Positions 1 to 12,705 of a stretch of DNA of 64,000 nucleotides are shown here, piece after piece; position 1 is the stretch's first letter; every line of letters starts with the position of its first letter. This DNA comes from Lachnospiraceae bacterium (lineage in GTDB: Bacteria; Bacillota; Clostridia; Lachnospirales; Lachnospiraceae): assembly GCA_016284355.1 (NCBI GenBank), contig JAEEOQ010000099.1:181-64180 (forward strand), written 5' to 3'. The translations under genes were made by a program, and so were the position numbers. The notes under the pieces are model-generated. The model ran no database searches, was not told the DNA's origin, and saw nothing but the letters and a program-made list of their open reading frames with translations.

Positions 1-195
1 GATAACTACGTCTGTTATTGATGTTTCATCAACTGTAATAGTAACGGTAACATCTCCGCCAAAACCGATCTCGGTAGCAGAATAAGTACCAGGGGTATAT
101 GAAGCTGCTTTAACTACTTTGCTTCCGGCAAAACTCTGAAGGATAACTGCAAGTGAGAGAAGCGCCATAGCGAAAAGTTTAATCTTTTTACTCAT
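1..195 (-). CDS. Secreted FMN-binding (FMN_bind-like) domain protein, N-terminal part only; the gene runs off the window start
   Basis: The minus-strand ATG at 193-195 overlaps the rnfE stop by 1 nt. My translation is MSKKIKLFAMALLSLAVILQSFAG (signal-like), then ...GFGGDVTVTITVDETSITDV, which resembles the FMN_bind domain core. It is not in the ORF track because it is truncated. Confidence 0.55.
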   Translation of the reverse strand, partial: MSKKIKLFAMALLSLAVILQSFAGSKVVKAASYTPGTYSATEIGFGGDVTVTITVDETSITDVVI

Positions 196-938
196 TACTT
201 TGTCTCCTCCTTTGCTGCCTTGGCTGCCTTAGCTGCCTCTGCCTTATTTTCAAGGATCTTTGCGTGGTTTTCAGCACAAATGGCTGCAGAACACTGATCG
301 CATCTTCCGCCGCAGCCTGCTGTGGCAACTACGCTGCCGTTTGTAGCGCTCTTAAGCTTGAACTTGTTCTGAAGAGCGGTAAGACAAGCAAGTACAAGGA
401 ATGCACCCGGTGCCTTTGTAAAGATAGCGATAGGCTCGTAATTGCCCGGCATGATCTGGAAACCAAAGATTGTTCCGGCACCGATAAGCTCTCTTACGAT
501 AGCTACGCTTGTAACACCGATGGTGAAACCGATACCCATACCGATTCCGTCAAAGATCGAAGGAAGGACAGGGTTCTTACTTGCATAAGCCTCTGCACGG
601 CCAAGAATAATACAGTTAACAACGATAAGTGGAATAAATACTCCAAGTGCGTCGTTAAGATCTTTAAAGTAAGCCTTCATAAACATCTGAACGATAGTTG
701 TAAATGAAGCAACAACTACGATGAAGGCAGGAATTCTGACACCGTCAGGAATAACCTTACGAAGTGCAGAAATAATAGCATTTGAACATATAAGAACTAC
801 TGCTGTTGAAAGACCCATACCTACAGCGTTTTTAGCGGATGTGGTAACAGCAAGTGTAGCACACATACCAAGCATAAGAACGAAGGTAGGGTTTTCTTTG
901 ATGATACCGTTATATAAACGTTCTAAACATTTTTTCAT
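195..938 (-). CDS. rnfE: Rnf electron-transport complex subunit E, with an extra Cys-rich C-terminal tail
   Basis: Polytopic membrane protein with RnfE/NqrD-type motifs (NPTFVLMLGMCATLAVT, IPLIVVNCIILGRAEAYASKN). It sits after rnfG in an rnfC-D-G-E order. Confidence 0.9.
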   Translation of the reverse strand: MKKCLERLYNGIIKENPTFVLMLGMCATLAVTTSAKNAVGMGLSTAVVLICSNAIISALRKVIPDGVRIPAFIVVVASFTTIVQMFMKAYFKDLNDALGVFIPLIVVNCIILGRAEAYASKNPVLPSIFDGIGMGIGFTIGVTSVAIVRELIGAGTIFGFQIMPGNYEPIAIFTKAPGAFLVLACLTALQNKFKLKSATNGSVVATAGCGGRCDQCSAAICAENHAKILENKAEAAKAAKAAKEETK

Positions 939-943
939 GAGCT

Positions 944-1546
944 TTACTTACCTCCAAACCCTTTGGCAAGCACAAGAGCAGAGTTAACGGCACCTGTAAC
1001 GGCTCTACTTGTAATGGTAGCTCCGCTTAAGCCTTCGATATTCTCACCAACGGTGAAAGATTCTGCGTCCTGGCCGTAAAACTGTGTTCTCCACTCAGGT
1101 TTATCTTTAGCATTCATACCCATACCTGCGGTCTCATGGATATCGATAAACTCTATGCCTGTAATTTTGCCGTCTGTTGTAACACCGATACTGATAGTAA
1201 GGTCGCCGTCGAATGCCTTTGTACTTTTTGCATTCATAACGTAACCGATAAGATTGCCGCTTGCGTCAACTGCCTCAAAAGCCTCAACAACAGATGCATC
1301 TTTAACACCTGCGCTGCTAAGTGCTTTTTTGTAATCGCCTGATTTAACGTAAGCTGTAAGTTCTTCGCTCTCATTAAACATGTCTGCATCAGCATATACA
1401 GCATAGTAAGCTGCTGTCTTTGCGCGCTGCTCTGCCTCGGCGATAGGACCTTTTGTTATCTCGTTTACAAAAGCAAGGCAAAGTCCGGCAACAACAGTGA
1501 TGATAGTTAAAGCTAAAGTGTCTTTTATGAATGTACTCTTTTTCAT
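944..1546 (-). CDS. rnfG: Rnf complex subunit G (FMN-binding)
   Basis: N-terminal membrane anchor followed by an FMN_bind-like region (DGKITGIEFIDIHETAGMG ... SGATITSRAV). It lies between rnfD and rnfE and overlaps rnfD by 4 nt. Confidence 0.85.
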   Translation of the reverse strand: MKKSTFIKDTLALTIITVVAGLCLAFVNEITKGPIAEAEQRAKTAAYYAVYADADMFNESEELTAYVKSGDYKKALSSAGVKDASVVEAFEAVDASGNLIGYVMNAKSTKAFDGDLTISIGVTTDGKITGIEFIDIHETAGMGMNAKDKPEWRTQFYGQDAESFTVGENIEGLSGATITSRAVTGAVNSALVLAKGFGGK

Positions 1547-2478
1547 GCTTTCTTAGCACCTGCCTTTCCAAATGGCGCAGGAATGGTAACTTTCTCGATA
1601 AGAGGAACAAGAAGGTTGCTGATGATGATAGCATAAGAAACACCTTCTGTAGTAGCTCCCCAAAGTCTGAAGATACCGGTAAGTACGCCTAAAAGCACAG
1701 CGTAGATAACCTGACCCCAAGCTGTGATAGGGCTTGTTGTGTAATCATTTGCCATAAAGAATGCACCGATAAGAAGACCGCCTGTAAGTACCTCGCTAAG
1801 GAGATATTTAGCGTCAAAGCCGAATCTTCCGAAGATGCCGATGAAGATCACTGTTGTAGCAACATATATTACAGGGATCTTCCATGTAATAACTTTCTTT
1901 ATAAGGAGGTAACAAGCACCGATAAGAAGACAAAGAGCACTTGTCTCGCCGATGGTACCTGCATAGTTACCTATAAAGTATGTTAAAAGCTCAGGTGTAG
2001 CACCGCTTCTAAGCTTAGCCATAGGAGTGGCTGCTGAAACACCGTCATATACCCATGCTGTCATACGACCTGCAAAGCTGATCATAAGGAAGCATCTTGC
2101 TGCAAGAGCAGGGTTCATAAAGTTCTGGCCGATACCGCCAAAAAGCATCTTAACCACAAGGATAGCGAAAACGCCGCCAAGTACGCACATCCACCAAGGA
2201 GCGGATGCAGGAAGGTTAAGTGCAAGTAAAAGTCCTGTAACTACTGCTGAAAGATCTCCGATTGTAACCGGCAGTTTCATAAGTTTCTCATAACAGAACT
2301 CGGTACAAACACAAGTAGCAACTGTGATAAGGATCACAAGAGCTGCGCTTAAACCGAAGTTGTAAATACCAAAGCCTGCGGCAGGAAGAAGCGCGATGAT
2401 AACATCGAGCATGATCTTTGTTGTGCTCGCTTTGGATCTGACATGAGGTGATGCCGATACGTTATATAAATTACTCAC
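1543..2478 (-). CDS. rnfD: Rnf complex subunit D
   Basis: Polytopic protein with an RnfD/NqrB-like N-terminus (VSASPHVRS) and a conserved TGATP-like region (SAATPMA). I place the start at the GTG at 2478, preceded by AGAGGTG. The longer track ORF (to 2526) would overlap the end of rnfC. Confidence 0.88.
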   Translation of the reverse strand: MSNLYNVSASPHVRSKASTTKIMLDVIIALLPAAGFGIYNFGLSAALVILITVATCVCTEFCYEKLMKLPVTIGDLSAVVTGLLLALNLPASAPWWMCVLGGVFAILVVKMLFGGIGQNFMNPALAARCFLMISFAGRMTAWVYDGVSAATPMAKLRSGATPELLTYFIGNYAGTIGETSALCLLIGACYLLIKKVITWKIPVIYVATTVIFIGIFGRFGFDAKYLLSEVLTGGLLIGAFFMANDYTTSPITAWGQVIYAVLLGVLTGIFRLWGATTEGVSYAIIISNLLVPLIEKVTIPAPFGKAGAKKA

Positions 2479-2494
2479 TGTATTACACCTCTTT

Positions 2495-3811
2495 CTATTT
2501 CTTCTTGCGATCTGCAAGTATCTCACTACGTGTTCTTACAAATAACTGAGTAAGCTGCTTCTTTGCAGGACATACGTAAGTACAGCTTCCGCAGCCGTAG
2601 CACTCCATACCGTGAAGCTTTTCAAATGTTGCTTTGTCTCCCTTGCGGCAAGCTGCTGCCATCTTGGTAGGAACAAGCTGCATAGGACAAGCTGCAACAC
2701 AGCGACCACATCTGATACAAGCGGTCTCTTTGCTGTCTGCCACATCATCTTTTGCAAGAGCAAGAAGTGATGAGCTTGTCTTTGTAACAGGGATATCAAG
2801 TGTACTTAATGCTTTACCCATCATAGGGCCACCGGAGATGATCTTCTTAGGATCTACTCCAAAACCGCCGGCCTGTTTAACCATCTCGGCATAATGCATA
2901 CCGATACGTACGTTAACATTGACCGGTTCACGCACTGCCTCGCCTGTAAGTGTGATAATTCTTCTGATAAGCGGTGTGCTAAGGCATACTGCGTTGTAAA
3001 TTCCGATAACTGTATCAACATTGTCTACAATACAGCCTGCATCTGCAGGAAGTTTGTCTGAACCGATCTTTCTGCCGGTTACCATGTAGATTATCTGACG
3101 CTCAGCACCCTGTGGGTACTTGGTCTTTAATACTTTTACTGTGATATTTGATTCATTTGCTGTAAGCTCCTGAAGCTTCTTGATGGCTTCAGGCTTATTG
3201 TCTTCGATAGCAATGACACCCTTTGCTCCGTCAAAAAGACTGAGCATAACCTTAAGGCCGCCGATAACCTTTTCCGGCTCCTCAAGTAACATTCTATAAT
3301 CGGATGTGAGATAAGGCTCACATTCTGCTGCGTTCACGATCACGTGATCGATCTTTTCAGGCTCCTTTGGAGCGAGCTTTACATGTGTCGGGAAACCGGC
3401 TCCGCCCATTCCGACAATACCGGCCTCTTTAACGATCTCTTTGATCTCATCTTTACTGAGCTTGGTGTAGTCTCTTTCTTTGCCAAAACCTTCAACCGTT
3501 CTGTACTCTTCGTCGTTTTCGACGATGATGGACATAACCTTTGAACCGTCTACAGTCTGTCTAGGCTCGATAGCCTTAACCTTACCGGAAACAGAGCTGA
3601 TAACAGGAGAAGATACAAAACCTGTAGCTTCTGCTATCTTCTGTCCGACAAGGACAACATCTCCGACAGCAACGATAGGACTGGCCGGAGCGCCGATGTG
3701 CTGGCTTACCGGGAATACCATATCGCCCTTAGGTTGAACGGTCAGCGTAGGCTTATTCATAGAAATAGTTTTACCCTCGTAAGGATGAATTCCACCACGA
3801 AACGTTGACAT
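2495..3811 (-). CDS. rnfC: Rnf complex subunit C (NADH-binding, 2x[4Fe-4S])
   Basis: MSTFRGGIHP N-terminus, a GMGGAGFPTHVK nucleotide-binding motif and two ferredoxin-type motifs (CIRCGRCVAACP and CYGCGSCTYVCP). Confidence 0.92.
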   Translation of the reverse strand: MSTFRGGIHPYEGKTISMNKPTLTVQPKGDMVFPVSQHIGAPASPIVAVGDVVLVGQKIAEATGFVSSPVISSVSGKVKAIEPRQTVDGSKVMSIIVENDEEYRTVEGFGKERDYTKLSKDEIKEIVKEAGIVGMGGAGFPTHVKLAPKEPEKIDHVIVNAAECEPYLTSDYRMLLEEPEKVIGGLKVMLSLFDGAKGVIAIEDNKPEAIKKLQELTANESNITVKVLKTKYPQGAERQIIYMVTGRKIGSDKLPADAGCIVDNVDTVIGIYNAVCLSTPLIRRIITLTGEAVREPVNVNVRIGMHYAEMVKQAGGFGVDPKKIISGGPMMGKALSTLDIPVTKTSSSLLALAKDDVADSKETACIRCGRCVAACPMQLVPTKMAAACRKGDKATFEKLHGMECYGCGSCTYVCPAKKQLTQLFVRTRSEILADRKKK

Positions 3812-4722: not shown

Positions 4723-4875
4723 CTAGTCTTCTATTCCCTTTTGGGTCTCATCGATCAGTTCACTTACAAGTCTGTCTACTTCTTCTTTGTCCCCGTTTTT
4801 ATTAGCCTCTTTTATGGCCTTAAGCCTGAAAAGAAGTCCACGAAGATAACTTTTGAAAACTGCCATGTCTTCCAT
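4723..4875 (-). CDS. Small 50-aa helical protein, last gene of the rSAM/Cys-repeat operon (not in the ORF track)
   Basis: Hand translation gives MEDMAVFKSYLRGLLFRLKAIKEANKNGDKEEVDRLVSELIDETQKGIED. The ATG is preceded by GGAGAGGTGGTG. It lies 42 nt downstream of the rSAM stop and directly upstream of the terminator. I recognise no family. Confidence 0.4.
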   Translation of the reverse strand: MEDMAVFKSYLRGLLFRLKAIKEANKNGDKEEVDRLVSELIDETQKGIED

Positions 4876-6189: not shown

Positions 6190-6760
6190 TCATTTCCTTT
6201 TTCTTTAATCTAAGTTTTCTGCTGCCAAAATCAAGAGTCCACTCGTAGAGGCAAAGTGGAAAGCCCTTTGGAAGTATTGTCTCTTGAAAGATAACAGCAT
6301 CCATGTAATAGTCGCCCGCCTTCTTTTCATAGTCATTTATCAGCCTGTTTAAGCTGTCTTTAAGGGAATCCCTTGAAAATGCAAACACCACATCATCAAG
6401 AGCCCGCTCCTTCTCATATCCGTCTCTTTGAAGTCTTTCAAAAGCTTCATCTCCTGCTGCCGAAAGGTCTGCATTTATCTCAGACGGCAGGTGCGCATCA
6501 TCAGGGTATATCTGCAGGGTACCTTCAGAATGGTTAACGTAATAATATGCACCCGCAAGATCCATATTTTTAGGGAAAAATCCGGTTTTAAGTCTTACTG
6601 CGATCTTTTCTCTTTCAAGCAGGTTTTTATCAAGATCCGGCTTAAAGGCAGGGATCTTTGCAGCAAGTTCCGTGTAAATGTTTACATACACATCATTTAT
6701 CATTATCTCGGTCAGAAAATCTTCAGGTATCTTAGTTTCATACAAAAGGTCAAATTTCAT
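6170..6760 (-). CDS. Hypothetical protein (196 aa), rSAM-system accessory candidate
   Basis: ATG preceded by AGGAG. It overlaps the upstream gene by 11 nt and the rSAM gene by 20 nt, consistent with translational coupling. No family recognised. Confidence 0.65.
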   Translation of the reverse strand: MKFDLLYETKIPEDFLTEIMINDVYVNIYTELAAKIPAFKPDLDKNLLEREKIAVRLKTGFFPKNMDLAGAYYYVNHSEGTLQIYPDDAHLPSEINADLSAAGDEAFERLQRDGYEKERALDDVVFAFSRDSLKDSLNRLINDYEKKAGDYYMDAVIFQETILPKGFPLCLYEWTLDFGSRKLRLKKKEMNAREAI

Positions 6761-7073
6761 CTGTTATTACTCCTGTATTTCCGTTTGCGGAAAGGAACAC
6801 ATTTAAAAACTCCGTGGTATCGCCAAAAATATATCGGATGTTAGCCACGCATGCGTATTTCCTAAGGATCTCTTTTCCGGCGCTATTTATAAACTTTACC
6901 TCGCTTACATTCTTGTCCGTAAATGAGACCGCGATCTCTTCCGGTGTCTTTTTGCCAAGTTCCTCCTCATTTATAAGAAAATCGTCAAATGCACTCTTTC
7001 CGGGCTCAGCCTTCAGGTTTGCCTGAAGCCTGTCTATTTTAAACTCTGTACCGTCTTTTAAAACTATCTTCAT
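6750..7073 (-). CDS. Hypothetical protein (107 aa), rSAM-system accessory candidate
   Basis: ATG preceded by AAAGGAAG, 51 nt downstream of the Cys-repeat gene. No family recognised. Confidence 0.6.
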   Translation of the reverse strand: MKIVLKDGTEFKIDRLQANLKAEPGKSAFDDFLINEEELGKKTPEEIAVSFTDKNVSEVKFINSAGKEILRKYACVANIRYIFGDTTEFLNVFLSANGNTGVITDEI

Positions 7074-7124
7074 GTATCTTCCTTTCGTGGTTCTTGGTTT
7101 TTGTTTATTTTCTATGGATCTCTT

Positions 7125-7811
7125 TTACTTAAAGGATGAGGACATACAGCTTGAGCCGCCGCAGCCCCCAAGGCATACTCCGGAGCAATTACCGGAGCAC
7201 TTGCTTGAACTTATTGCACACTGTCTTGTACAAACTCCTACGCAGCTTGTACATGCAGATGTACAGTTTCCTTTGCATGCAGATGTACACCCGGAGCACC
7301 CGCCGCTGCAGGTTCCGGTACAAGAGGTGCAGCCTCCGCTGCATCCACCGCTGCAGCCCGTACAGCTTCCGCTGCAGGTTCCCGCACAGCCTCCGCAATA
7401 TGCAGAGCAGGAAACGCAACTTCCCTCGCAGGAACCGGAGCATGAAGTGCAGGCAGAAACGCAGGCAGATATGCATAGTCCGCTGCATGCACCTGCGCAG
7501 GAGCTTTTGGCTCCGTATCTTTTTGTTTCTGCCGCAAGTCTGTCCACATGGGCAATAAGCTCTGTATCAAAGCCATCAGGTATAGGGTCGCCCTTTTTTA
7601 CTTCTTTAAGACCGTTTACGGGAGCTATCTTTAAAATGAGGTCGATGGTTTTTTGCCCGTGCTCTGCCATAACAGGGCTTCCTGCTTCAGGCACCAGGTT
7701 AAAATCATAGTCGCTTCCCGCAAACACGGTCAAAGACCCGTTGCCGTCTCTTCGAAGAAGTTCGCTTTTTATCTTTGCTTTTAGTGTATTGATGTCTTTT
7801 GCGCTTAGCAT
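7125..7811 (-). CDS. Cysteine-repeat protein (228 aa): about 104-aa Cys-free N-terminal domain plus a 125-aa array with 31 Cys; presumed substrate of the adjacent rSAM maturase
   Basis: The C-terminal sequence is CAGACSGLCISACVSACTSCSGSCEGSCVSCSAYCGGCAGTCSGSCTGCSGGCSGGCTSCTGTCSGGCSGCTSACKGNCTSACTSCVGVCTRQC...CSGNCSGVCLGGCGGSSC. The ATG lies 3 nt after the preceding stop. The ORFs on the opposite strand here are low-complexity mirror images. Confidence 0.85.
   Translation of the reverse strand: MLSAKDINTLKAKIKSELLRRDGNGSLTVFAGSDYDFNLVPEAGSPVMAEHGQKTIDLILKIAPVNGLKEVKKGDPIPDGFDTELIAHVDRLAAETKRYGAKSSCAGACSGLCISACVSACTSCSGSCEGSCVSCSAYCGGCAGTCSGSCTGCSGGCSGGCTSCTGTCSGGCSGCTSACKGNCTSACTSCVGVCTRQCAISSSKCSGNCSGVCLGGCGGSSCMSSSFK
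7128..7499 (-). repeat. Coding tandem repeat: C-x2-C-x3-C-x3 units (11 residues, 33 bp), about 6 clear copies inside a longer C-x2/3 array
   Basis: Units read directly: CEGSCVSCSAY, CGGCAGTCSGS, CTGCSGGCSGG, CTSCTGTCSGG, CSGCTSACKGN, CTSACTSCVGV. The region is visibly more GC-rich than its flanks. Confidence 0.85.
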
Positions 7812-7814
7812 AGA

Positions 7815-8075
7815 TTACCCCCAAACAGCCCTTGTGGTCTCCCAGGTTACTCCGTTGTAGTACTTTATAACTCCGCCGGCTCCGGTATCTACCCAAAGGC
7901 TACCCTTATCAGCAGGTACAGAAGGTGATATCACTACTTCTGTTTTTATGTTGTCTTTAAATGTCATGCCGGAGGCAAGGGCATTTACAGGGTTTGCCAT
8001 CATAATCCCCGCCGCTGTAAGCGCTGTACCTTTTACAAAATCTTTTCTTGTGATCTTCTTATCAAATATGCTCAT
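7815..8075 (-). CDS. Small secreted protein (86 aa) with a twin-arginine-like (RK variant) signal peptide
   Basis: The N-terminus MSIFDKKITRKDFVKGTALTAAGIMMANPVNALA/SG resembles the Tat consensus S/T-R-R-x-F-L-K, followed by a hydrophobic region and an AxA cleavage site. AAGGAGA RBS. It lies between the coiled-coil gene and the Cys-repeat gene. Confidence 0.7.
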   Translation of the reverse strand: MSIFDKKITRKDFVKGTALTAAGIMMANPVNALASGMTFKDNIKTEVVISPSVPADKGSLWVDTGAGGVIKYYNGVTWETTRAVWG

Positions 8076-8084
8076 TTTTTCTCC

Positions 8085-9785
8085 TTAACCGTTATATATC
8101 ATTATCCGCTCTACGTAAGTGTCTGCAGGGTCTGCGATGTAAATACGCATATAGCCCTTATCGCCCTCATACCTTACTCTGCTTTGCGGCAGCACCGTGT
8201 AGAGAACCTCCACATGGGAGTCTGCCGTAAATGCGCTGTTTCTTATCTCGTAAAAATATTCGCCCTCTGCACTCTCCCAGCTTTCCTTTGCGATCTTAAA
8301 GCCTTTTATGTAGGTGATGCCAAGTCTTTCTTCGAGCCCGTCAAGTCTTCCGGCAAGAGCATCCCTCTCTGTTTTTGCATTTTCTTTTTCAGTTTCAATG
8401 CTGCCTGTAAGCTCTGTTTTGGCGTCTTCTATAGCTTTTTCAAAGTTTTTAGCAAGGTCATCTCTTGCGCTTTCAAGCTCGTTTCTTACAGATTCAAGGC
8501 CTAAAGCAAGGTCCTCTTTGGTATTTTCAAGATCTTCCTTGGTACTTTCAAGATCTTCCTTGGTACTTTCAAGGTCTTCCTTTGTTTCTGCAAGGTCTTC
8601 CTTTGTTTCTGCAAGGTCTTCTTTGGTGGCCGCAAGATCTTCCTCGGTGCCTGTCAGTTCTTCCCTGGTCTCGGCAAGATCCTCGTTTACCTCATCGATC
8701 CGCTCGTCAAGCCTTGATGATGTGGCCTCATTTAAAAGGTCGTAAAAGCCTTCAAGGATCTTCCTGCTGTAATCATTCTCCTTTGTTTTTATCTGCATGA
8801 GGCTGCTGATATCAAGATCTGCTGCCCCCTCAAGAGCAGTGGTGATCTCTGATTCGTATAGATCAATGGCAGCAAGAAGTTCTCCCCTCTTAGCTTCTGC
8901 TACATCAGGAAGCCTAAGGCCTGCCGTCTTAGCCCTTGCAAGGCCTGCGTATGCTACAACTCTTTCTGCAAGTTCCGCAGCATTTATGCCGCGGCGAAGG
9001 GAGTCTATAAGCTCTTTTGTATTTCCGTTGCTTGTGTTAAGGTCTTCTGTCAGGACGTCAAGCCGCAAGGAAAGATTTGCCACCTGCCTGTCAAGGCCCT
9101 TAAAGCGCGCCTCTCCCTCAGCCATATACGCGTAAAGTTTTTCGGAAAGCCCTGAGATAGATGCCATAAGGCTTGCACTCTTGCTTTCCGTAAGCCCGGT
9201 AAGCTCAGTTTTTATCTGTTCAAAGCGAAGGTCCGTGTTTTCCTTGTCTTCTCCCCAGGTGTGGTTAAGGTTTTCAAGCTTTTCGCTGACCGCCCTTACC
9301 TCTTCCTTAAAGGAGCCAAGGTTATTTCTGTATTCTTGTAAATTTTCTCTGTATTCTTTTAAATCGTCTCTGTATTCTTTTATCTCTGTTTCATTTTTGC
9401 CACTTAGCTTAACTTCACTCTTCAGTTCCCCGTCAATGCGCTCGATGCTGCTAAAAATGCTGTCAATCGAAGCATTTACCGTTTCAAGACCTGTGATAAG
9501 GGCGGGCGCATCCTCTTTTTTTGCATCTTTTACCTTTTCCTTAAGGTCTTCTATATCCGCCACCAGGGCGGCGATCTTTTCGTCTATCTCTTCTTTGTAT
9601 TTGCTGCTTGCTCCGGTGTTTTCCGCTTTTCCACTTTCCGCGGATTTCCCGCTCTCATTTTCCACACGTGTGGAAACTTTTTCCGCCGCTGCTCTCTTCC
9701 CGCTGCCGCTTACTAGGCCCACACTCGCAAAAAGCGCGAGCACAAGGCTAAGGGCAAGAGCTGTGGCTGTTATCTGTTTTTTCAT
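8085..9785 (-). CDS. Signal-anchored coiled-coil protein (about 566 aa) with heptad tandem repeats and a small beta-rich C-terminal domain
   Basis: I place the start at the internal ATG at 9785 (MKKQITATALALSLVLALFASVGLVSG, with AGGAGA upstream). The track ORF extends to 9857 inside tatC. Most of the protein is long charged heptad-rich sequence. Confidence 0.8.
   Translation of the reverse strand: MKKQITATALALSLVLALFASVGLVSGSGKRAAAEKVSTRVENESGKSAESGKAENTGASSKYKEEIDEKIAALVADIEDLKEKVKDAKKEDAPALITGLETVNASIDSIFSSIERIDGELKSEVKLSGKNETEIKEYRDDLKEYRENLQEYRNNLGSFKEEVRAVSEKLENLNHTWGEDKENTDLRFEQIKTELTGLTESKSASLMASISGLSEKLYAYMAEGEARFKGLDRQVANLSLRLDVLTEDLNTSNGNTKELIDSLRRGINAAELAERVVAYAGLARAKTAGLRLPDVAEAKRGELLAAIDLYESEITTALEGAADLDISSLMQIKTKENDYSRKILEGFYDLLNEATSSRLDERIDEVNEDLAETREELTGTEEDLAATKEDLAETKEDLAETKEDLESTKEDLESTKEDLENTKEDLALGLESVRNELESARDDLAKNFEKAIEDAKTELTGSIETEKENAKTERDALAGRLDGLEERLGITYIKGFKIAKESWESAEGEYFYEIRNSAFTADSHVEVLYTVLPQSRVRYEGDKGYMRIYIADPADTYVERIMIYNG
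8499..8687 (-). repeat. 21-bp (7-aa) coding tandem repeat, TKEDLxx, about 8 copies
   Basis: Protein: EDLAETREELTGTEEDLAATKEDLAETKEDLAETKEDLESTKEDLESTKEDLENTKEDLALG. The DNA shows near-identical 21-mers (for example ggtactttcaagatcttcctt twice, and tttgtttctgcaaggtcttcc twice). Confidence 0.8.
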
Positions 9786-10494
9786 CTTTTTTGATTTCTC
9801 CTGTTGTTTTTTTGCTTTTAAGTAAGGCGCCAAGGGTACAGACTTCATAAACCGCAAGAAGCGGAAGCGCCACCGCTATCATGCTGAAAATATCCGGTGG
9901 GGTCATAAATGCCGCAAGAAGAAAAGCAAGCGGATACACCGCAGGTCTGATCTTCTTTAATATGGCAGACCCCACTATCCCCCTTCTGACAAGTAAAAGA
10001 AGCAAGGAAAAAGCAAACGCAAGGATCCCGCAGGAAATGCCGGCACTTAAGAGGAAAGATAACGCTTTTTCCAGCGTAAATTCAGCCCTAAGCCCCTGTC
10101 CTTCCGAAACTTTTATAAAGAGCCTTACTGCAGCGTATACAAGAAATCTTACTCCGCAGATTGCCCCTGTTATGAAGGCCGCAAAAGGTGCGATCAAAAG
10201 TCTTTTTTTGACGCGGATCTGCAGATAGGATGCCAGAGAAAACAGGGCAAACGGGGCTGTCAGCACAAGGGCCGATACCGCAGCCAGATTTACGCCGCTT
10301 ACAATGATCTCGACAGGTGATAACATACGTATATCAAGTCCCATCTTTTTTGACTCATTTACAATTGTTTTAAGTATTTCCGGAGATAAAATGTAAAATA
10401 AGATAAACAGAATTCCCCAGATAATAAGACAAAAAGCTGTTTGCTTTCTTGCTTCTTTAATATGTTCGCCCACGGTCATAAGGTCATCTTTCAT
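9748..10494 (-). CDS. tatC: Twin-arginine translocase subunit TatC
   Basis: Six-TM protein with the characteristic TatC motif region (AFMTPPDIFSMIAVALPLL) and a typical N-terminal amphipathic segment (GEHIKEARK). It overlaps the end of tatA. Confidence 0.85.
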   Translation of the reverse strand: MKDDLMTVGEHIKEARKQTAFCLIIWGILFILFYILSPEILKTIVNESKKMGLDIRMLSPVEIIVSGVNLAAVSALVLTAPFALFSLASYLQIRVKKRLLIAPFAAFITGAICGVRFLVYAAVRLFIKVSEGQGLRAEFTLEKALSFLLSAGISCGILAFAFSLLLLLVRRGIVGSAILKKIRPAVYPLAFLLAAFMTPPDIFSMIAVALPLLAVYEVCTLGALLKSKKTTGEIKKDEKTDNSHSSCP

Positions 10495-10627
10495 TTCCCA
10501 TGCCGCCGCTCTTTAAATAGTCCATAGACTGTTTTAATGCCTCTGTGACCTTTGGAAGCTGCTTTGGTCCAAATAACAAAACAACCACAGCAAGTATCAC
10601 CAGGGCTTCAGCCATTCCGATGCGCAA
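10484..10627 (-). CDS. tatA: Twin-arginine translocase subunit TatA/E (47 aa, not in the ORF track)
   Basis: Hand translation from the TTG at 10627 (GGGAGGTG lies 7 nt upstream) gives (M)RIGMAEALVILAVVVLLFGPKQLPKVTEALKQSMDYLKSGGMGNER. This has the TatA hallmark of a TM helix followed by FGPKKLP-like and amphipathic segments. An alternative ATG is at 10615. Confidence 0.65.
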   Translation of the reverse strand: MRIGMAEALVILAVVVLLFGPKQLPKVTEALKQSMDYLKSGGMGNER

Positions 10628-11995: not shown

Positions 11996-12022
11996 ATGTA
12001 AGCCCCCGTTTTTCATAGTACG

Positions 12023-12049
12023 AAAAAAGGAGATACCGTAGTATCTCCT
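12023..12049 (-). terminator. Rho-independent terminator after tRNA-Leu
   Basis: The minus strand reads AGGAGATAC-TACG-GTATCTCCT followed by TTTTTT. Confidence 0.65.
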
Positions 12050-12055
12050 AAGTAA

Positions 12056-12135
12056 TGCGGGTGACAGGACTTGAACCTGCACGCTCTCGCACAAGAACCT
12101 AAATCTTGCGTGTCTGCCAGTTCCACCACACCCGC
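12056..12135 (-). tRNA. tRNA-Leu (anticodon UAG)
   Basis: The minus strand reads GCGGGTG...CAAGA-TTTAGGT-TCTTG...long variable arm...GGTTCAAGTCC...CACCCGCA. Cloverleaf arms identified by eye. Confidence 0.85.
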
Positions 12136-12140
12136 AAAGC

Positions 12141-12211
12141 TGGGCCAACTGGATTCGAACCAGCGAGTGCAGGAGTCAAAGTCCTGTGCCTTACCGCTTG
12201 GCGATGGCCCA
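12141..12211 (-). tRNA. tRNA-Gln (anticodon UUG)
   Basis: The minus strand reads TGGGCCATCGCCAAGCGGTAAGGCACAGGA-CTTTGAC-TCCTG...GGTTCGAATCC...GGCCCA. Confidence 0.85.
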
Positions 12212-12227
12212 ATAATGCTACCCGAAT

Positions 12228-12236
12228 ATTATAACA
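12228..12236 (-). promoter_or_regulatory. Candidate extended -10 promoter (TGTTATAAT) for tRNA-Gln/Leu
   Basis: On the minus strand about 17 nt upstream of the tRNA-Gln 5' end and downstream of the internal terminator. The -35 is weak. Confidence 0.4.
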
Positions 12237-12260
12237 TGATTAATCTTCGGAGTGAATAAA

Positions 12261-12299
12261 AAAGTAAAAAAATAGAGCAAAGAATTAATCTTTGCTCTA
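12261..12299 (-). terminator. Rho-independent terminator immediately after tRNA-His
   Basis: A 10-bp stem (TAGAGCAAAG / CTTTGCTCTA) with a 7-nt loop, followed on the minus strand by TTTTTTTAC. Confidence 0.65.
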
Positions 12300-12375
12300 G
12301 GGTGGATACAGGGATTCGAACCCTGGGCCTCCAGAGCCACAATCTGGCGCGCTAACCAGCTGCGCTATACCCACC
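12300..12375 (-). tRNA. tRNA-His (anticodon GUG)
   Basis: The minus strand reads GGTGGGTATAGCGCAGCTGGTTAGCGCGCCAGA-TTGTGGC-TCTGG...GGTTCGAATCC...ATCCACCC, including the extra 5' G typical of tRNA-His. Confidence 0.85.
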
Positions 12376-12416
12376 ATGATATGAAATAAGCAACACTAAT
12401 ATTGTGTTGCCCGTAA

Positions 12417-12490
12417 TGTGCCAGAAGGGATTCGAACCCCCGACAACCGGCTTAGAAGGCCGATGCTCTATCCAGCTGAGCTACTAGCAC
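12417..12490 (-). tRNA. tRNA-Arg (anticodon UCU)
   Basis: The minus strand reads GTGCTAGTAGCTCAGCTGGATAGAGCATCGGC-CTTCTAA-GCCGG...GGTTCGAATCC...GGCACA. Confidence 0.85.
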
Positions 12491-12549
12491 AAACCTACCA
12501 AGCAAAGTGATCAATGCAATGGTAATTAATATGTTTAAAAACATATTAA

Positions 12550-12620
12550 AGCGGGTGATGGGAATCGAACCCACGTATCCAGCTTGGAAGGCTGGTGTTC
12601 TACCATTGAACTACACCCGC
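12550..12620 (-). tRNA. tRNA-Gly (anticodon UCC)
   Basis: The minus strand reads GCGGGTGTAGTTCAATGGTAGAACACCAGC-CTTCCAA-GCTGG...GGTTCGATTCC...CACCCGCT. Confidence 0.85.
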
Positions 12621-12630
12621 AAGTTAAAAG

Positions 12631-12705
12631 TCGGGGTGACAGGATTCGAACCTGCGACCTCTTGATCCCAAATCAAGCACTCTAGCCAAACTGAGCCACA
12701 CCCCG
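12631..12705 (-). tRNA. tRNA-Pro (anticodon UGG)
   Basis: The minus strand reads CGGGGTGTGGCTCAGTTTGGCTAGAGTGCTTGA-TTTGGGA-TCAAG...GGTTCGAATCC...CACCCCGA. Confidence 0.85.

Follow-up and report, generated by a model that had tools for sequence, protein, structure and literature searches.

The window analysed here is a 64,000-nt stretch of a Lachnospiraceae genome (contig JAEEOQ010000099.1). Its minus strand carries an operon in the order tatA, tatC, p590, p86, array, p107, p196 and maturase, followed by p50, with intergenic gaps of -110 to +51 nt. Terminator-like sites on the minus strand were absent between the operon genes, and the only two found both lay inside tatC. The array gene encodes a protein with 31 closely spaced Cys and lies upstream of a gene for a radical S-adenosylmethionine (SAM) enzyme of the CXXX-repeat target family. 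On balance, though by no means with certainty, we take the array protein to be a structural protein that acquires cross-links, probably thioethers, in the cytoplasm and is then exported in folded form by a dedicated twin-arginine translocation (Tat) system. The features are as follows.

7125..7811, minus strand: array protein, 228 aa, with an N-domain (residues 1-104; window 7500-7811) and a 31-Cys array
7125..7499, minus strand: Cys array (CxxxC/CxxC), residues 105-222, given here with the C-terminal tail and stop codon
4918..6189, minus strand: radical SAM/SPASM maturase of the CXXX-repeat target family (TIGR04115), 423 aa
6170..6760, minus strand: p196, in which a maturase partner domain of ~109 aa occurs twice in tandem (each copy a strand, a helical hairpin and a beta-hairpin)
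6750..7073, minus strand: p107, a small protein between the array gene and p196, without a family match
7815..8075, minus strand: p86, with a Tat-like signal (ITRKDFVKG..., a hydrophobic stretch, ALA/SG cleavage-like site) and a ~40-aa fibre C-terminal motif (SLWVDTGAGGVIKYYNGVTWE)
8085..9857, minus strand: p590, whose N-terminus carries a hydrophobic anchor or signal, followed by a long coiled coil and, at the C-terminus, a conserved domain of ~95 aa
9748..10494, minus strand: divergent TatC (Pfam TatC 87.6 bits, cutoff 25.1; TIGR00945 75.8, cutoff 132.7)
10484..10627, minus strand: TatA/E-like protein (...LLFGPKQLPKV...), 47 aa (TIGR01411, E 1e-9, 37.8 bits, cutoff 53.9)
4723..4875, minus strand: p50, a small open reading frame (ORF) downstream of the maturase whose membership of the system is uncertain

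The Cys array and its coding strand

A preliminary description of this DNA, made from the sequence alone, had reported a Cys-free N-terminal domain of 104 aa followed by 31 Cys, without a signal peptide. All of this holds: residues 1-104 are free of Cys, the series of 31 starts at residue 105 and ends at residue 222, all of it within the final 124 residues, and no signal peptide is visible on the array protein. The gaps between successive Cys, in order 3,3,3,3,2,3,3,2,3,2,3,3,2,3,3,2,3,3,2,3,3,3,2,3,3,6,3,3,3,4, comprise 21 of three residues, seven of two, one of 6 and one of 4. Cys makes up 25% of the array, and the remainder is nearly all Ser, Gly, Thr and Ala (29, 25, 10 and 9 residues, respectively); a single acidic and two aromatic residues are present, and Pro is lacking.

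Autocorrelation of the Cys positions peaks at lags of 4, 11, 15 and 22, and a partial 11-residue (3,3,2) rhythm sits in the middle of the array. At the DNA level, Tandem Repeats Finder returned a 33-bp unit in 2.7 copies with 66% matches (7303-7391) and a 12-bp unit in 2.6 copies, and the direct repeats found were 62-82% identical. Since these DNA repeats are weak, the 11-residue period is a spacing pattern at the protein level and not a recent DNA tandem repeat. We also compared two strains of the same species (L165 and L166; p86 99-100% identical). The array protein has 228 aa and 31 Cys in all three strains, so that the expansion or contraction by recombination suggested earlier finds no support among them or in the DNA repeats.

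The strain comparison also bears on which strand is read. Between the window and L166 the array gene differs at 21 nt, of which 17 are third codon positions of the minus frame; together they change four residues in that frame and nine in the frame of a rival plus-strand ORF (7072-7710). In the array part, 12 nt changes alter a single amino acid. The minus strand is the coding strand. The preliminary description had named the plus-strand ORF, which is P/Q/H-rich and 212 aa long, as a coding alternative that would refute its own reading, and either translation of that ORF or a non-coding repeat would remove the array protein altogether. The existence of so long an ORF is the point in favour of this explanation; with the substitution pattern, the place of the array gene within a tight minus-strand operon, and an N-domain family of 306 clusters with a confidently predicted fold set against it, we regard its probability as negligible.

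Scans of the array protein, the N-domain, p107, p196 and p86 against Pfam, NCBIfam and PHROG gave no match except a weak one to PHROG 6085 on the early array, and a look-up found no contig carrying an exact copy of the array protein. Public records label all array and partner proteins 'hypothetical protein'.

The maturase belongs to a curated CXXX-repeat family

The maturase scored 449.9 bits against TIGR04115 (cutoff 350), a curated NCBIfam/TIGRFAMs model named "radical SAM peptide maturase, CXXX-repeat target family", which covers residues 27-393. A protein with tandem CXXX repeats, the array protein, is encoded ~1 kb upstream in the same operon. The window gene is thus a member of a curated radical SAM system of a kind already known, a membership that the preliminary description had not recognised; nor had it recognised the phage origin and Tat linkage described below. 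The family comprises more than 3,300 sequences at E <= 1e-30. The next-best characterised models all remained below their cutoffs: PapB at 194 bits (340), QhpD-type TIGR03906 at 117 (453) and SCIFF (six Cys in forty-five residues) TIGR03974 at 116 (425). The best sequence match in the PDB was CteB (5WGG, E 1.4e-24). Across 31 homologues the CxxxCxxC cluster residues C37, C41 and C44 are invariant, as are C281, C299, C349, C352, C358, C361 and C380; the Pfam SPASM model alone reached 17.1 bits, below its cutoff of 21.5. The radical SAM core begins at about residue 27, leaving no room for a recognition element (RRE) of the kind found with peptides that are ribosomally synthesised and modified post-translationally (RiPPs). 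The curated target model TIGR04117 did not match the window array protein even at E = 10 and matched the N-domain protein of locus L176 only faintly (19 bits, cutoff 50).

Some relatives carry insertions. Three CXXX-family maturases (P0051, P0054 and P0088) contain Hint/intein Pfam domains, and in a 907-aa maturase ORF (L189:7846-10569) an insertion of ~315 aa splits the match to the maturase hidden Markov model (HMM). To judge from these sequences, the insertions are probably inteins inside a radical SAM enzyme.

We used the maturase alignment to gather 80 genome loci and 80 viral loci. Among the 138 with enough upstream sequence, 135 had an array, 126 an N-domain and 130 the ~109-aa partner. 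That the array protein is the substrate of the adjacent radical SAM/SPASM enzyme, as proposed earlier, is the presumptive assignment. Three accounts of the array had been offered: many thioether cross-links, a metal-thiolate or Fe-S polymer, and a disulfide-stitched extracellular fibre. The first fits best, because the characterised enzymes that the maturase most resembles by score (PapB, QhpD and SCIFF/CteB) all form Cys thioethers.

The second would make the array a metallothionein-like or Fe-S rod, with Zn, Cu, Fe or Fe-S bound along its length, Tat export called for by the cofactors, and an accessory or different role for the radical SAM enzyme. The composition is metallothionein-like in its proportion of Cys, its G/S/T/A-rich remainder, its few aromatics and its lack of Pro; no metallothionein family in Pfam or NCBIfam matched the array protein. 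Metal ions are coordinated along trimeric fibres and spikes of phage T4. Tat cargo is, moreover, typically folded and cofactor-loaded (PMC6708511). Metallothioneins, however, need no maturase, yet the array accompanies a TIGR04115 enzyme in nearly all of the surveyed loci. The closest characterised enzymes make covalent thioethers, a partner fused to the maturase implies handling of a substrate, and spacings of two or three residues would offer poor geometry for cubane clusters. We consider a metal-binding rod unlikely.

Partner proteins

The AlphaFold2 model of p196 (pLDDT 88.8, pTM 0.82) consists of a strand, a helical hairpin and a beta-hairpin, twice over. The partner HMM matches residues 105-187, and the signature elements of p196 align convincingly with the partner family. 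The model found no match in the PDB at E <= 0.001 (best TM-score ~0.3), and none of 43 partner proteins gave a Pfam PqqD signal. In loci of the L176 type, with maturases of 578-580 aa, the partner domain is fused to the maturase as residues 1-99, ahead of the radical SAM core, and in P0133 it is fused to the array protein. On the strength of these fusions we infer that the partner is probably a substrate-handling accessory of the maturase.

Homologues of p107 occupy the same position in three prophage loci (L004, L006 and L013) and are also found in L035 and L042; p107 further shows weak similarity to a viral cluster. The small ORF p50 is conserved in L003 (80%) and L030 (50%).

The N-domain and the array family

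A word-indexed homologue search with the N-domain returned a single relative, and an exhaustive HMMER scan (E <= 0.001) was needed to define the family, which comprises 306 representative clusters. The N-domain is modelled by AlphaFold2 as a three-helix domain (mean pLDDT 85, pTM 0.78). Profile sequence and fold searches of the PDB gave nothing significant, and the sole credible fold neighbours are two uncharacterised gut-virome proteins. The first 104 aa, which the preliminary description had thought might be a conserved domain, are thus conserved and predicted to fold.

The array is conserved with it, a second point raised at the outset: 93 of the 102 N-domain homologues of at least 130 aa have at least six Cys. 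Among 206 unique N-domain proteins, the array opens with at least five consecutive CxxxC in 204, and a proximal motif C-x3-C-x-G-[LMIV]-C-x3-C-x3-C-x2-C is common to 138. Three-residue gaps account for 68% and two-residue gaps for 28% of the spacing, and the number of Cys per array ranges from 8 to 144 (median 25); one further array, in L063, has 145 Cys in 650 aa. At least three consecutive (3,3,2) units occur in only 12 of the 206. The 31 Cys of the window are therefore typical, and the 11-residue period is lineage-specific. The preliminary description had called the array unusually long and periodic: it is long beside SCIFF-type peptides but ordinary within its own family, and the period, although present in mid-array, is partial and not family-wide.

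The nearest orthologues of the array protein, in L004 and L006, are 55% identical and have 44 Cys. Both ends are conserved, and blocks of ~41 and 8 residues in their mid-array are missing from the window. The contigs of the closest maturase relatives (L002 and L003) stop just short of the array gene, so that repeat variation is not visible there. The comparison of repeat number among orthologues, suggested earlier, gives a mixed result: the array is identical in length and Cys number in the three strains, but its length differs between species and the number of array genes differs between related loci.

In 139 of 144 ORFs the N-domain stands ahead of the array. Seven loci (L059, L060, L066, L067, L070, L071 and L072) are permuted, with the array first, a conserved ~100-aa domain last and the gene downstream of the maturase. 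Cys-only array proteins without an N-domain adjoin the same maturases in some loci. In P0205, P0238 and P0268 a large globular C-terminal domain comes after an N-domain and short array, a layout of anchor, stalk and head. Since arrays without the N-domain exist, the N-domain is sometimes C-terminal, the domain is folded and anchor-stalk-head members occur, the N-domain is probably not simply the leader that the preliminary description took it for.

These data also bear on a classical RiPP reading, in which the N-domain would be an oversized leader that is cleaved off and the cross-linked core would be secreted as a bioactive peptide such as a bacteriocin. A radical SAM/SPASM maturase with a small partner is what RiPP clusters contain, and the usual position of the N-domain before the array would suit a leader. 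The operon, however, encodes neither a protease nor an ATP-binding cassette (ABC) exporter. The N-domain is a folded domain of ~100 aa, which is absent beside some of the same maturases and stands at the C-terminus in others (L059-L072); some members end in large globular domains, arrays reach the size of that in L063, and the dominant context is a phage tail-fibre module. We hold this reading to be improbable, slightly more so than the metal-binding rod. The best explanation is that the product is a structural protein and not a small diffusible peptide.

Several further observations concern how array proteins are recorded and processed. In P0128 and P0246 the N-domain is followed by an out-of-frame reading of the array, and assemblies tend to break or frameshift inside arrays; array genes are for this reason under-represented in public protein sets. 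Four Cys-only arrays (L007:2492-3145, L008:9365-9922, L071:7014-8003 and L168:7091-7612) start with M..NLQ(F/L)F(A/G) or LQYFA, which we take to resemble the Prp-cleaved N-terminal motif of ribosomal protein L27 and of Firmicutes phage structural proteins; as a sequence motif, it suggests proteolytic processing of phage-type arrays. A hydrophobic signal-like N-terminus precedes the N-domain in P0147 and replaces it in L022:7065-7655, so array proteins may, by these predicted signals, have more than one export route.

Phage tail-fibre context

The last ~40 residues of p86 are found again at the extreme C-terminus of a protein encoded directly upstream of array genes. Among 99 matches to this fibre C-motif, 76 are at the C-terminus and 79 have an array gene within the following 700 nt, and the HMM of the fibre protein matches p86 with E 1e-18. 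The proteins upstream of arrays are tail fibres, with matches to BppU_N, Phage_tail_fib, collagen repeats and numerous tail-fibre PHROGs, and genes for Baseplate_J, Mu Gp48, a sheath initiator, YqbQ-like proteins and P2 tail protein I are found still further upstream. At least one phage marker occurred in 46 of the 59 genome loci and in 57 of the 67 viral loci, and at least 478 IMG/VR contigs encode maturase relatives. The GenBank phage collection contained no match to the N-domain and eight to the maturase, all metagenomic.

The nearest outgroups of the window, L004 and L006, are prophage loci with the order fibre, cluster-1 partner-like ORF (126-187 aa), array, p107-like, p196-like, maturase and a gene that is amidase-endolysin-like by sequence. 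No phage genes were found in the window, in which the fibre C-motif of p86 is the sole remnant. The ancestry of the cassette is nonetheless phage.

This context bears on the third of the accounts offered earlier, a disulfide-stitched extracellular fibre, in which disulfides would form after export and the radical SAM enzyme would act on something else. The fibre part of this idea gains from the tail-fibre context and the Tat operon, and the high Cys density is compatible with disulfides, but nothing is specific to them. The hosts are strict gut anaerobes (Lachnospiraceae and other Clostridia), in which disulfides would be disfavoured; the phage versions assemble in a reducing cytoplasm; and the obligate linkage to the maturase is left unexplained. 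Disulfide stitching is in our estimation very improbable, well below the metal-binding and RiPP alternatives.

Linkage to a putative dedicated Tat system

The p86 protein has 86 aa and the signal motif T-R-K-D-F-V-K. All p86 homologues have [ST]-R-x-[DE]-F-[LV]-K, the Tat consensus with its second Arg replaced, and p86 retains the remaining Tat motif, the hydrophobic region and an A-x-A-like site. Another Lachnospiraceae species (L022) has the same gene order as the window operon. A scan of metagenomes with the p86 alignment identified 33 loci, many of them on human-gut contigs of 100-270 kb. Every scanned locus that reached far enough upstream contained tatC, and most also contained tatA. With enough flanking sequence, almost every locus showed the order tatA and tatC, a p590-like anchored protein, a p86-like protein, between one and six genes for arrays, an N-domain protein, and maturase with partner. 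The C-terminal domain of p590 is kept at the same position in Tat-linked loci, and the maturases of the metagenome loci all pass the TIGR04115 cutoff. Several stand-alone arrays have RRxKLKK or KLKK signal-like N-termini.

Within one group of near-identical Tat-linked loci from human-gut metagenomes (L167-L190), two to six tandem array genes give 76-194 Cys in total; this variation is in copy number at the level of the gene and not within it. The TatC proteins of the window and L022 are 25% identical, and a word-indexed TatC search returned one close relative.

On one side the cassette adjoins an operon for the Rnf complex (RnfC, D, G and E/A-like; window 195-3811), and beyond tatA, at ~12,000-12,700, the sequence is tRNA-like in appearance. 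These flanks are an ordinary housekeeping context and confirm a chromosomal, non-prophage location.

Proposed mechanism

We propose that the TIGR04115 maturase of the operon acts on the array and would probably work with p196. The enzyme most likely installs many intramolecular thioethers, each joining the sulfur of a Cys to a carbon in a residue close by, and these would make of the array, rich in Gly, Ser, Thr and Cys, a rigid rod that is impossible to unfold. The cassette descends from a phage module located directly after the tail-fibre gene and captured in this chromosome, where the fibre gene has been reduced to p86, keeping the fibre C-terminal motif and gaining a single-arginine Tat-type signal. 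The array protein, signal-less, modified and folded, would leave through the dedicated Tat system, perhaps by piggy-backing on p86, and would be displayed on, or released from, the cell surface. Gene content, homology, gene order and predicted folds are results of the analysis; the chemistry, the export route, an interaction of p86 with the array protein and the final location are inferred. A cross-linked chain that cannot be unfolded for Sec would explain the dedicated Tat genes; for the phage versions, whose virions are assembled in the cytoplasm, export is unnecessary.

There is precedent for each half of this export route. In the Bacillus subtilis TatAdCd-PhoD system, a substrate-dedicated minimal TatAC pair is encoded next to its cargo (PMC6708511), and by the hitchhiker principle a signal-less partner is co-exported with a signal-bearing protein (PMC4273604).

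Several points weigh against cross-linking and Tat export as we propose them. The array has a lone acidic residue, which makes Cys-Asp/Glu links of the PapB/QhpD type impossible, so the acceptor cannot be Asp or Glu. The CXXX-repeat family is, as far as we found, experimentally uncharacterised, and we found nothing on the system in the accessible literature. The partner was considered as a PqqD-type RRE, an identity rejected for want of a PDB fold matching the p196 model. The twin-arginine motif S/T-R-R-x-F-L-K is absent from p86 and its homologues, and both TatA and TatC score below curated NCBIfam cutoffs, so that the export competence of the pair is putative. The L022 array lacks the N-domain that would dock on p86, and in 58 loci the N-domain occurs without the fibre C-motif; dependence of the one on the other is thus unsupported by co-occurrence. 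Docking of the N-domain on p86, which we only propose, and competence of the single-arginine signal, predicted from its sequence, are the weakest links.

The maturases of the window and L022 are not sister lineages, which also tells against a simple history; a single origin of the Tat-linked variant was considered and rejected on this ground. The Tat association appears to be old, assembled more than once, or shuffled. If it is old or was repeatedly assembled, this argues for a functional link.

A broader proposal goes further and is correspondingly more doubtful; we think it somewhat less probable than an even chance would make it. Radical SAM enzymes may build a new class of cross-linked structural proteins, with tens to more than 100 thioethers per chain, that serve as distal tail-fibre elements in phages of gut Firmicutes and were domesticated at least once into a cell-surface appendage built by a dedicated TatAC translocase that recognises a single arginine, a membrane-anchored coiled-coil stalk and p86 as tip adaptor.

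Comparison with known systems

The window system resembles the CXXX-repeat system (TIGR04115 with TIGR04117, 'Cys-Xaa-Xaa-Xaa repeat radical SAM target protein') in that the maturase passes its cutoff, Cys occurs about every fourth residue of the target and the two genes are neighbours. It differs in that the window target does not match TIGR04117 and carries a folded N-domain of 104 aa. Neither the family names nor the papers we found mention the partner protein, the tail-fibre context or the Tat operon.

Among characterised enzymes, PapB, the maturase of the ranthipeptide freyrasin, forms thioethers from Cys to Asp/Glu in CX3D/E motifs (PMC9413430). Likenesses to PapB include its rank as second-best maturase model, a radical SAM/SPASM core without a long N-terminal RRE, and repeated short Cys motifs in the substrate. 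The score is nevertheless well below the PapB cutoff, the window array has no CX3D/E acceptor motifs, and its substrate is a protein of 228 aa and not a short peptide. With SCIFF/CteB the window system shares the closest solved structure, a Cys-rich substrate nearby and an origin in Clostridia. In contrast, the SCIFF score is far under its cutoff and the window substrate is ~5x longer, with 5x more Cys and a folded domain. An RRE-type domain forms the N-terminus of CteB; the window system has instead a separate partner protein whose fold is unrelated.

QhpD provides a precedent for a structural-protein substrate: this radical SAM/SPASM enzyme cross-links Cys of a protein subunit, QhpC, in the cytoplasm before export. 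In QhpC, which forms the gamma subunit of quinohemoprotein amine dehydrogenase, four cross-links join to Asp/Glu, and the protein leaves through a dedicated ABC transporter. Unlike the array protein, QhpC has no repeat array and is exported by an ABC transporter and not by Tat, and the QhpD-type score of the maturase is far below cutoff.

Dedicated TatAC and hitchhiker systems (TatAdCd-PhoD; PaoABC and HybOC of Escherichia coli) are similar in having TatA and TatC beside the presumed cargo, or a signal-less partner that could ride along. The window differs in its single-arginine signal, its divergent TatA and TatC and its cargo, a predicted radical SAM-modified Cys array, which is undescribed. 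Finally, the array system shares with accessory or assembly proteins of the P2 gpG/Mu Tfa type a position directly after a tail-fibre gene, in this system one with a conserved C-terminal tip motif. The N-domain, however, resembles no solved protein in sequence or fold, and we know of no counterpart of the Cys array and radical SAM maturase in Tfa systems.

No earlier description seems to exist of the arrangement of domains, the fold of the partner or the derivation from phage tail-fibre modules, nor, most notably, of the chromosomal form linked to Tat.

Significance

If the proposed mechanism is correct, RiPP-type radical SAM chemistry would here make a material, namely rigid rods borne by phage tails and by the surfaces of bacteria in the anaerobic gut, and not small molecules. 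The substrates of thioether synthases would extend from peptides of ~45 aa to proteins with up to 145 Cys. This would explain why a large curated maturase family, with more than 3,300 sequences and a presence on at least 478 viral contigs, has stayed a functional orphan. The operon would further be a natural case in which Tat export is required by covalently cross-linked cargo, and would define a single-arginine Tat signal variant paired with a divergent TatC, a ready system for work on Tat signal recognition. The finding is thus relevant to radical SAM and RiPP chemistry, to phage biology and to Tat biology, and in this Lachnospiraceae bacterium it would be a clear example of the domestication of a phage tail-fibre module.

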